The translations under genes were made by a program, and so were the position numbers. From assembly GCA_022796855.1 (NCBI GenBank), contig JAAWJM010000001.1:42242-106241 (forward strand): 64,000 nt of DNA, in the 5' to 3' direction. Position 1 is the first letter of the stretch. Every line of letters starts with the position of its first letter. The notes beneath the pieces are model-generated. The model saw nothing but the letters and a program-made list of their open reading frames with translations, had not been told where the DNA came from and ran no database searches. Positions 34,597 through 36,045 of this stretch are shown here, piece by piece. This DNA comes from Clostridia bacterium (GTDB taxonomy: Bacteria > Bacillota > Clostridia > TANB77 > CAG-508).

Positions 34597-35484
34597 ATGG
34601 ATAGAAATATATATAAATATAATATTGAAGTTTGTGGGATTGATGTACCAACAAAACCAGCCAGAATAGAATTTAATGTAGAATTTGAAAATCTTTTAAA
34701 TTATTTAATTTCTTTACCGAAAGAGGAGAGAAAACAAGAACTTTTAAAATGTGAAAAGGTAATTTTTTTAGAAGAATATGAAAAAAAGGAAGAAGCAAAC
34801 GATATGAATGTATATTTTTTGAAATTTGTTTCATTAAAATATAATCAAACGAGAGAAGTTTTAAATAAAGATACTTTAGAGAGTAGAGGTAGGTTAAAAG
34901 AAATAAGCGATGGAGATAAAGAATGCAATCATGTTGTAATTGTTGAGCAAGGTAGAAAGATAAAGGCTGCTTTTGAATATAATTATTATGGATTACAAAG
35001 ATTAGAGACAATCATATCATATTTAAATGATATGTGTGTAAGTTACTTTAATAGTATTGGAATAGATAAATATTACTATTTAGAAGCTCATAATGAGGTG
35101 AGTAGAAATTTTATAAATGAATTGAATAGAATGACTAAAATAAATGTTGCAACAATTGTAATTGAATCAAATAGATTAGGAAATACGGATTTTGGGAATT
35201 TAGCAGGGAGAGAAGAAGTGAATAGTGAAATAGAAATTACTTTAAGAAAAGCTAGAAGAAATAATAATATACCAAAGGATATTATTAGGCAGTATTATGA
35301 TAATAAGAATGAGAGTGGTATAAAAAGAATCTATGTTTCTGGTAGAAATTCAACCAATAAAGTTAAATTAGATACAGAAGAAATGAAACAAAAAGAAAAA
35401 ATAACAATTATAGCAAATGCATTTGGAGAAGTAGATTCAAATGAAATGTTTGAAAGCGTAAAAGAATATTTGATGAGGGGATAG
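34597..35484 (+). CDS. Hypothetical soluble protein; first gene of a tightly linked two-gene cassette.
   Basis: A 295-aa AT-rich ORF with no recognisable motifs. A 4-bp gap separates it from the downstream membrane-protein gene. Confidence 0.45.
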   Translation: MDRNIYKYNIEVCGIDVPTKPARIEFNVEFENLLNYLISLPKEERKQELLKCEKVIFLEEYEKKEEANDMNVYFLKFVSLKYNQTREVLNKDTLESRGRLKEISDGDKECNHVVIVEQGRKIKAAFEYNYYGLQRLETIISYLNDMCVSYFNSIGIDKYYYLEAHNEVSRNFINELNRMTKINVATIVIESNRLGNTDFGNLAGREEVNSEIEITLRKARRNNNIPKDIIRQYYDNKNESGIKRIYVSGRNSTNKVKLDTEEMKQKEKITIIANAFGEVDSNEMFESVKEYLMRG

Positions 35485-35487
35485 ACT

Positions 35488-36045
35488 ATGAAAAATAAAT
35501 TTTTGAATTCAGAGATTTTACTGCCACTTTTAGATTATAATAAAATTGAAGGAAGAAAGGAAAATTTAACAAAATCAATCATTTTTGTAGTTATTGCATT
35601 GACAGTGGGATGGTTTATGCTTTATTACTCTAATTCGTTTATTGAGGAATTTGATGAATTTGTGTTAGAGTATATTGCTGTAGAAATAGGTATTGTTACA
35701 TTACTGTTAAGTTTTAATATTGCATGTTTAACTATTCTTATAACAGCTAATGGACAAAACGTAAAAAGATTAAAAGAATATGCTACTAAGATGGAAATTG
35801 ATAATAAAACAGTATCATTATATCAAATATTGTTAATACAGTTTACATATGCAATATATAATGAAATAGTATTATTGATGTTATTATTAATTCATAAATT
35901 TATATTTATACTCATAGGGAGTTATTCAAACATAATATTTTTTACGATAAATATGGTATTGCTACTAAATATAGTATTTGTTACTTTTAAAAATGTAAAA
36001 AACCTATATTTATCCTTTTGGAAAAATGATCCTAATGAAAAATGA
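35488..36045 (+). CDS. Small 4-5 TM membrane protein; second gene of the cassette.
   Basis: Hydrophobic segments SIIFVVIALTVGWFMLYY, IAVEIGIVTLLLSFNIACLTILI, LYQILLIQFTYAIY...LLIHKFIFILIG and IIFFTINMVLLLNIVFVTF. Confidence 0.45.
   Translation: MKNKFLNSEILLPLLDYNKIEGRKENLTKSIIFVVIALTVGWFMLYYSNSFIEEFDEFVLEYIAVEIGIVTLLLSFNIACLTILITANGQNVKRLKEYATKMEIDNKTVSLYQILLIQFTYAIYNEIVLLMLLLIHKFIFILIGSYSNIIFFTINMVLLLNIVFVTFKNVKNLYLSFWKNDPNEK

Follow-up and report, generated by a model that had tools for sequence, protein, structure and literature searches.

The A-B gene pair

The subject of this analysis is a pair of adjacent genes, here called A and B, in a 64,000-nucleotide stretch of DNA from a Clostridia bacterium (contig JAAWJM010000001.1). 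The whole of this stretch is referred to as the window, and positions are counted from its first letter. Gene A (34597-35484) and gene B (35488-36045) are both on the forward strand, both begin with ATG and both are intact open reading frames (ORFs), encoding respectively a soluble protein of 295 residues and a protein of 185 residues with four transmembrane (TM) segments. In a Clostridia metagenome-assembled genome NCBI names each of them "hypothetical protein", and the existence of full-length homologues, at 55-76% and at 26-31% identity, establishes that A and B are real genes. An earlier note on this DNA had proposed just such an arrangement, a soluble protein and a 4-TM partner encoded by tightly linked, co-oriented genes, and the ORFs bear this out. 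The note was also right about the AT-rich composition, the GC contents of A and B being 25.6% and 22.4%, below those of the window as a whole (30.5%) and of the upstream Big_2 gene (38.5%), but the intergenic gap, which it gave as 4 bp, is actually 3 nucleotides (TAG-ACT-ATG).

Plausible ribosome-binding sites are present at both genes. Ahead of A a Shine-Dalgarno-like GGAGG (34582-34586, forward strand) is located 10 nucleotides 5' of the ATG, and its first base also closes the Big_2 stop codon. A promoter-like or terminator-like site was sought between the Big_2 gene and A and none was found. Because there is no space for a promoter ahead of A and no predicted terminator, the sequence suggests that transcripts reading through from the Big_2 gene probably account for the expression of A and B. 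The tight coupling of the two genes is compatible with a need for fixed stoichiometry of their products.

Predicted structures and similarity to lambda Rex

Neither A nor B matched Pfam, NCBIfam or PADLOC, and with respect to these collections the earlier description of the pair as having no recognisable motifs stands. It does not hold for PHROGs, in which A (phrog_4672, 1.8e-9) and B (phrog_4613, 2.7e-13) each match, over their full length, a family of unknown function. Nor is the pair "unannotatable", as had been stated, since both proteins belong to PHROG families and the A homologue of Roseburia phage Jekyll is annotated "RexA-like protein" in the public phage record. It was because of this label that a lambda Rex-like pair was taken as the working hypothesis; the preprint on Jekyll contains no discussion of that gene. 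The lambda Rex references for what follows were the Pfam families RexA (PF15969) and RexB (PF15968) and the RexA crystal structure, Protein Data Bank (PDB) entry 8TWQ.

A lacks hydrophobic segments (maximum KD19 0.87). A model of this protein was built with AlphaFold2 (AF2) from 21 sequences (pLDDT 84.8, pTM 0.76) and, when the predicted structures of both proteins were submitted to Foldseek, A returned RexA first whereas B had no significant match. The two chains of 8TWQ top the PDB results for A (8twq_B with E 1.7e-6 and 8twq_A with 1e-5, each with a probability of 1.00, over about 324 columns). The next PDB match after RexA, at 2.2e-3, is human CENP-N, the yeast counterpart of which is CHL4. 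In BFVD, a library of viral protein models, the A model retrieved five uncharacterised phage proteins of 277-322 residues (8e-17 to 6e-10, TM-scores up to 0.64), followed by phage RdgC proteins at 5.6e-4 and 1.2e-3. RdgC and the kinetochore pair IML3/CHL4 are the structural relatives that were reported by RexA's crystallographers (PMC11077077).

In RexA the globular domain, which contains a seven-stranded sheet, is split into two parts (residues 1-139 and 248-279) by an intervening dimerisation domain of four strands and four helices (143-234) (PMC11077077). In the A model the elements follow one another in the same order, with strands and helices from 2 to 153, an insert from 160 to 250, and a return between 255 and 293 that comprises two strands and a C-terminal helix. 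We therefore delimit, on the forward strand, the N-terminal portion of a globular domain that is rich in beta structure and split in two (residues 1-155; 34597-35061), an inserted domain of four strands and four to five helices (residues 158-250; 35068-35346) and the return to the globular domain with its C-terminal helix (residues 252-295; 35350-35481). The model thus clearly predicts a RexA-like fold for A, and the link between A and RexA is a purely structural one.

Within the A family an acidic motif, D105-G106-D107-x-E109 (34909-34923), is invariant, together with K101, R86, N129, G132 and the pair D259-T260, and these residues are kept among homologues from 100% down to 26% identity. To judge from this conservation the motif could be an interaction site or a catalytic site; a counterpart in lambda RexA is undescribed.

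B is a small membrane protein with four TM segments, the termini and the central loop of which are placed in the cytoplasm by hydropathy, by the positive-inside rule and by AF2. Lysines and arginines are concentrated at both ends of the protein and in its central loop, a pattern that indicates an N-in/C-in topology. Hydropathy places TM1 at residues 28-48 (35569-35631), TM2 at 63-86 (35674-35745), TM3 at 113-138 (35824-35901) and TM4 at 147-168 (35926-35991), all on the forward strand. TM1 is preceded by a conserved cytoplasmic segment of about 27 residues, and between TM2 and TM3 hydropathy and the model place a conserved central cytoplasmic loop (87-112; 35746-35823, forward strand) with a beta-hairpin. 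In the AF2 model (pLDDT 81.5) the protein appears as a bundle of four long helices, with a short helical segment at the cytoplasmic N-terminus and the hairpin in the central loop. Conservation in the B family peaks in TM2 and the central loop. In Sbash gp31, the 4-TM protein of a RexAB-type system of a Mycobacterium phage, the central loop contains invariant residues and the sites of two mutations that abolish defence (PMC6426596).

An exhaustive search with a hidden Markov model (HMM) showed that B belongs to a family of 347 cluster representatives at 50% identity (E<=1e-3). With a profile of 10 sequences, hhalign gave a probability of 5% for a match to lambda RexB, and with 127 sequences this rose to 45.6% (E 2.1e-4, score 29.7). 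The alignment pairs residues 26-99 of B with residues 8-79 of RexB, running collinearly from TM1 through the outer loop and TM2 into the beginning of the central loop. As a control, 100 block-shuffled RexB decoys that preserve hydropathy were aligned in the same manner; their maximum score was 19.2 and the reversed sequence scored 15.4, compared with the observed 29.7. One B-family member matched the PADLOC RexB model marginally (E 0.0048), and no match to Pfam RexB was found among 127 members of the family, two of which gave one weak Pfam match, to an ABC-2 membrane family. Among the BFVD neighbours of the B model a 165-residue Sbash protein ranked fifth with a non-significant E of 0.8. Homology between B and RexB is probable but not established.

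A protein of the uncultured Siphoviridae phage ctylc9 (A0A8S5S8L2) heads the BFVD matches for A (8e-17, TM-score 0.64), and another (A0A8S5S8H0, TM-score 0.45-0.48) is among the top non-significant matches for B. This phage probably carries another copy of the A-B pair.

Phage copies and chromosomal defence islands

An A-family ORF is located directly upstream of B, on the same strand, at all 16 loci from IMG/VR, which were retrieved with B-family patterns alone, and at all 7 other loci; by HMM the linkage is therefore 23 out of 23. With tblastn the same order was found on a replicon of Monoglobus pectinilyticus and, in deposited phage genomes, A and B are adjacent and in this order in the Anaerostipes phages AC844P1-3 and in Jekyll. 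The spacing between the two genes varies from an overlap of 4 nucleotides to a separation of about 20, a range that is compatible with translational coupling. In some prophages A-B is the last cassette, at the prophage end after the holin and endolysin genes, and on other viral contigs it is flanked by a gene for a late regulator (Sigma70_r4 or DUF1492) on one side and by terS-terL-portal on the other. The phage copies thus occupy accessory-gene ("moron") slots.

Locus L013 has an A-B pair (P0031) and a host flank (the CotJ operon) identical to those of L014 and L015, but the tail modules of the prophages differ, one being siphovirus-like with Peptidase_S74 and the other myovirus-like with baseplate J, which suggests that these are mosaic phages with a common end comprising the lysis genes, the accessory genes and att. 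In two representatives of the B family, P0064 (447 residues) and P0092 (269 residues), a B domain follows N-terminal fragments of a DNA methyltransferase or of a type IIG/BREX-like protein. These were considered as candidate A-B fusions, and this was ruled out because both are run-ons of a methyltransferase fragment and B; they are probably products of gene calling, and they show that restriction-modification (RM) or BREX genes lie directly upstream of B-family genes in other genomes.

In the window the pair is flanked upstream by a gene for a YHYH and Big_2 protein with a C-terminal anchor (33794-34582) and downstream by AbiLi (PADLOC 2.4e-63) and AbiLii (PADLOC 5.9e-8), as the earlier note had proposed in placing the cassette between a Big_2 surface protein and an AbiL-like pair. 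A PDC-S01-type AAA_14/DUF4143 ATPase, in two ORFs, lies farther upstream. The order argS-PMI-LytR-PDC-S01-Big_2-[A-B]-AbiLi-AbiLii-VanZ, followed by exopolysaccharide (EPS) genes, is that of the species and is conserved in many metagenomes. At a second non-phage locus (L004) the neighbours are McrBC, a PDC-S50 Schlafen/AlbA_2 protein, a Bpu10I RM system, an integrase fragment and RelB/YafQ, and at a third (L042), from an uncultured Clostridium species, they are a D12 methyltransferase with TdeIII, HNH, Mrr and a type I-B CRISPR-Cas system. The scan of genome contigs was a narrow pattern search that gave one extra locus. Every non-phage copy examined, that is, those of the window, L004 and L042, is in a defence island. 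The earlier note had offered the consistent location of homologues in housekeeping operons, such as those for transport, as grounds for abandoning a defensive role; what was found instead were variable defence islands and phages, and in no case a transport or replication operon.

L061, which derives from another strain of the same species, was compared with the window by DNA alignment. The two sequences match through the end of the Big_2 gene, diverge immediately after its stop codon (34580-34582) and match again from about 36055, 10 nucleotides past the stop codon of B, and on through the AbiLi promoter region. In L061 a single gene (L061 positions 2380-4626), encoding a protein of 748 residues that matches PADLOC PDC-S46 at 2e-199, replaces A-B. 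The segment that differs between the strains, and which defines the mobile cassette (34583-36054, forward strand), therefore comprises the ribosome-binding site of A, A itself, B and a few bases past the B stop codon. Exactly the A-B cassette has been exchanged for another defence candidate, and the slot between Big_2 and AbiLi behaves as a hotspot for the exchange of defence genes. The Big_2 gene is kept upstream of both alleles and probably supplies their transcription, so that the PDC-S46 allele, like A-B, is probably expressed by read-through.

Several features of the surrounding DNA deserve mention. The Big_2 protein, which is secreted or anchored, is composed of an N-terminal YHYH motif domain, a low-complexity linker of threonine, lysine and asparagine, the Big_2 domain and the C-terminal TM anchor, and it resembles the Ig-domain structural proteins of phages (phrog_215, 2.8e-24). 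The PDC-S01-type ATPase gene (32322-33626) is a pseudogene in this strain, interrupted by a stop at 32835-32837 that resulted from a single C-to-A change (TAC to TAA); an intact allele of 431 residues is present in L009, L010, L060 and L063, and several other strains have the same split. Just upstream of AbiLi (36074-36094) there is a perfect 8-bp inverted repeat, TTATGCAA-N5-TTGCATAA, that overlaps a promoter-like TTGCAT (-35)/TATACT (-10) and is kept in the PDC-S46 strain; it could be an operator or a weak terminator. Arginyl-tRNA synthetase is encoded by two ORFs in different frames, 28154-28369 (the 71-residue N-terminal domain) and 28383-29870 (495 residues), with the junction just downstream of an A-rich run. 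This split is identical in all the strains recovered, from independent metagenomes, and could represent a genuine split gene or a programmed frameshift. The Bac_transf priming glycosyltransferase (38696-39455) and the next glycosyltransferase (39458-40730) are likewise present, in all strains, as pairs of overlapping or adjacent short ORFs. Finally, the EPS/glycosyltransferase cluster downstream of VanZ differs between the window, L008 and L011 on the one hand and L009 and L010 on the other, so that a variable surface-polysaccharide locus adjoins the defence islet.

A probable RexAB-type module and its alternatives

The structural match, the weak profile homology, the order of the genes and their occurrence in phages lead us to group A-B with the lambda RexA/RexB-type systems. 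By fold and organisation the pair is most likely a new, very distant relative of RexAB, one in which A falls outside the Rex sequence families. Our analysis leads us to favour the interpretation, which we hold with reasonable but far from complete confidence, that A-B is a two-gene phage-exclusion (abortive-infection) module of the RexAB type, which would have originated in phages and would now stand by itself, as a cassette, in a defence hotspot on the chromosome of a gut Clostridia bacterium. As in lambda, the two genes form a tightly coupled operon carried by temperate phages, in which the soluble protein is encoded first (279 residues in lambda, 295 here) and the 4-TM protein second (144 residues in lambda, 185 here). 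Unlike lambda RexB, B has the additional N-terminal cytoplasmic segment and the hairpin in its central loop; unlike the lambda operon, A-B is not co-transcribed with a cI repressor gene and is found in moron slots or chromosomal defence islands; and the hosts of A-B belong to the Bacillota (Clostridia).

Other RexAB-type systems were compared by means of their published descriptions, namely gp30/gp31 of Mycobacterium phage Sbash, gp44/gp43 of Gordonia phage CarolAnn and RexABpp (PP_5643/5644) of the Pseudomonas putida prophage P1. In these systems the partner protein has four TM segments and a functionally important central cytoplasmic loop (PMC6426596), and B likewise has four TM segments. 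They are encoded by prophages and defend against heterotypic phages, whereas the copy in the window stands apart from any prophage. The actinophages encode longer RexA-like proteins (337-372 residues), which have DUF4747 in common with RexA, in contrast to the A family, which has no DUF4747 match. A further parallel is offered by PDC-M53, a two-gene candidate in PADLOC, the components of which match members of the A and B families weakly and in the corresponding order: PDC-M53A was matched by 1 of 26 A-family members (2.3e-7) and PDC-M53B by 7 of 107 B-family members (best 2.2e-6), while the A and B proteins of the window had no match to these models at E<=1. These matches suggest that A-B and PDC-M53 belong to one superfamily, which has already been flagged computationally as defence-associated. 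A literature search found no description of PDC-M53, and a search for Rex-like systems in Clostridia returned nothing relevant.

A number of observations weigh against a RexAB assignment. The global TM-score of the A model to 8TWQ is only about 0.3, with a root-mean-square deviation of about 18 Å, values that were obtained by superposing the domains jointly and that we attribute to a different angle between them, since the crystal is in a "closed" state while AlphaFold predicts "open" ones (PMC11077077). A profile of 19 A-family sequences yielded only noise against the sequences of the PDB. In hhalign, A profiles of 19 and 35 sequences gave probabilities of 0.2-0.5% against lambda RexA and did not rise above decoys, the score being 17.7 compared with a decoy mean of 13.8 (standard deviation 2.1, maximum 18.7). 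Among about 150 family members scanned (19 A and 127 B) there was no match to Pfam RexA, RexB or DUF4747, and the PADLOC RexA model was matched neither by the A protein of the window nor by any of 26 members of its family. The positive controls performed as they should, with lambda RexA detected at 1e-97 (Pfam) and 9e-110 (PADLOC) and RexA and RexB together spanning 1e-97 to 1e-61. Profiles of the RexA and RexB families assembled from IMG/VR and a phage collection were too shallow to help, as the relatives recovered were 61-100% identical to the lambda proteins. A is acidic (isoelectric point 5.8) where lambda RexA is basic (8.6), and DNA binding by A is for this reason not assured. The B model had no significant structural match in BFVD (best E 0.14), and the hhalign match to RexB is confined to the first half of B, a membrane protein of the kind that is prone to spurious profile matches. 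Lastly, A-B is not adjacent to a cI-like repressor gene, unlike rex in lambda.

If A-B is nevertheless a module of the RexAB type, the most plausible mechanism, by analogy with lambda RexAB, Sbash gp30/gp31, CarolAnn gp44/gp43 and RexABpp, involves a membrane-acting effector. In those systems a RexA-like dimer that binds DNA non-specifically is thought to sense infection and to activate the 4-TM partner, whereupon the partner depolarises the membrane or makes it permeable and growth stops. Accordingly transposed, A would be a cytoplasmic protein with the two-domain fold of RexA and RdgC, probably dimeric and probably DNA-binding, and would sense a product of the infecting phage or one of its DNA-protein intermediates. 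Activated A may then contact the cytoplasmic face of B, through the conserved central loop, the N-terminal segment or both, upon which B would oligomerise or open, with loss of membrane potential and ATP. The infected cell would halt its growth and replication of the phage would fail. The earlier proposal of a novel membrane-disrupting defence module agrees with these results insofar as A-B is a two-gene module of defence islands that is swapped with PDC-S46; what is not supported is its novelty in kind, the module being most likely of the Rex type.

The alternative that fares best retains the kinship with Rex and reverses the roles. Mycobacteriophage Butters gp30/gp31, one of the five Rex-like systems described, works in this fashion (PMC12894663), and by analogy A would be a toxic or antiviral effector that B sequesters until infection. 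The invariant D105-G106-D107-x-E109 and the other invariant polar residues of A could then mark an active or interaction site of a kind undescribed for lambda RexA, and the conserved N-terminal segment of B could be a docking site. However, the membrane protein is the effector in four of the five described systems (PMC12894663), no enzymatic fold was detected in A by the Pfam scan or by Foldseek against the PDB and BFVD, and B, with its large family of 347 clusters, is conserved at least as well as A. We consider this arrangement unlikely.

A role in the life cycle of the phage or in superinfection exclusion, instead of abortive infection, is likewise unlikely. A-B might influence the choice between lysis and lysogeny, for which lambda offers a precedent in that RexA, without needing RexB, biases the CI/Cro switch (PMC11077077), or B might block DNA entry at the membrane, and many copies do reside in prophages. 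It is the genomic contexts that weaken this explanation. The copies in the window, L004 and L042 are outside prophages, amid RM, CRISPR, Abi and toxin-antitoxin genes, where a modulator of the switch would have no target; a defence candidate consisting of one gene can take the place of the cassette; and even the phage copies are in moron slots and not beside repressor genes.

It is also conceivable, although we think it quite improbable, that A and B are an unrelated and truly novel defence pair, similar to Kiwi or of another sort, and that the resemblance to Rex is convergent or an artefact of modelling. The absence of significant sequence similarity between A and RexA, the TM-score of only about 0.3 and the 46% probability of the B-RexB match are what one would expect in that case. 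The structural results argue otherwise, since Foldseek assigned a probability of 1.00 to both RexA chains and placed the known structural relatives of RexA next, and A-B agrees with Rex in its domain architecture, the order of its genes, the sizes and topology of its proteins and its origin in phages. The comparison with Kiwi (KwaA/KwaB), made in the earlier note, holds in so far as both pairs combine, in a generic way, a multi-TM protein and a soluble one, and do so in a defence context. KwaB, the soluble partner in Kiwi, is a DUF4868 protein and its gene follows that of the TM protein; in A-B the soluble protein with the RexA fold comes first, so that order and fold are those of Rex. No PADLOC model of any system, presumably including Kiwi, matched A or B at E<=1 and the Pfam scans revealed no DUF4868, and we therefore set the comparison aside. 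A housekeeping pair, consisting of an RdgC-like protein of DNA metabolism and an unrelated small membrane or transport protein, might be imagined because RdgC is within the fold family and two of 127 B members weakly match ABC-2, but the contexts in effect refute it: the genes are patchily distributed, phage-borne and present or absent between strains of one species, A-B was never seen in a transport or replication operon, and the RdgC matches are about 100-fold weaker than that to RexA.

Returning to the RexAB-type interpretation, a broader and more tentative possibility is that the pair represents a large, unrecognised Rex-like clade in gut Clostridia and their phages, which might be mechanistically distinct from lambda Rex; we would give this less credence than its negation. 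Differences in mechanism may include the use of the DGDxE motif of A as an active or trigger-binding site, the gating of a channel by the N-terminal segment and loop hairpin of B, or a reversal of roles like that in Butters.

Rex is the oldest known abortive-infection system. Nevertheless only five Rex-like systems have been described, all of them from phages of Proteobacteria or Actinobacteria (2026 paper, PMC12894663), whereas the A-B family comes from Clostridia; it would extend the RexAB type to the Bacillota and to gut phages. The Pfam and PADLOC Rex models tested overlook this large family. The exchange of the cassette for another defence candidate at one chromosomal slot provides a clean natural experiment, the pair is a compact target of 1.5 kb for study of how a sensor with the RexA fold activates a 4-TM effector, and the diversity of B sequences could aid work on the structure and mechanism of RexB. 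If the existence of a large Rex-like clade proves true, Rex would be no peculiarity of lambda and some actinophages, and Rex-type immunity would be a widespread, modular class of defence that moves between the moron slots of phages and chromosomal hotspots.

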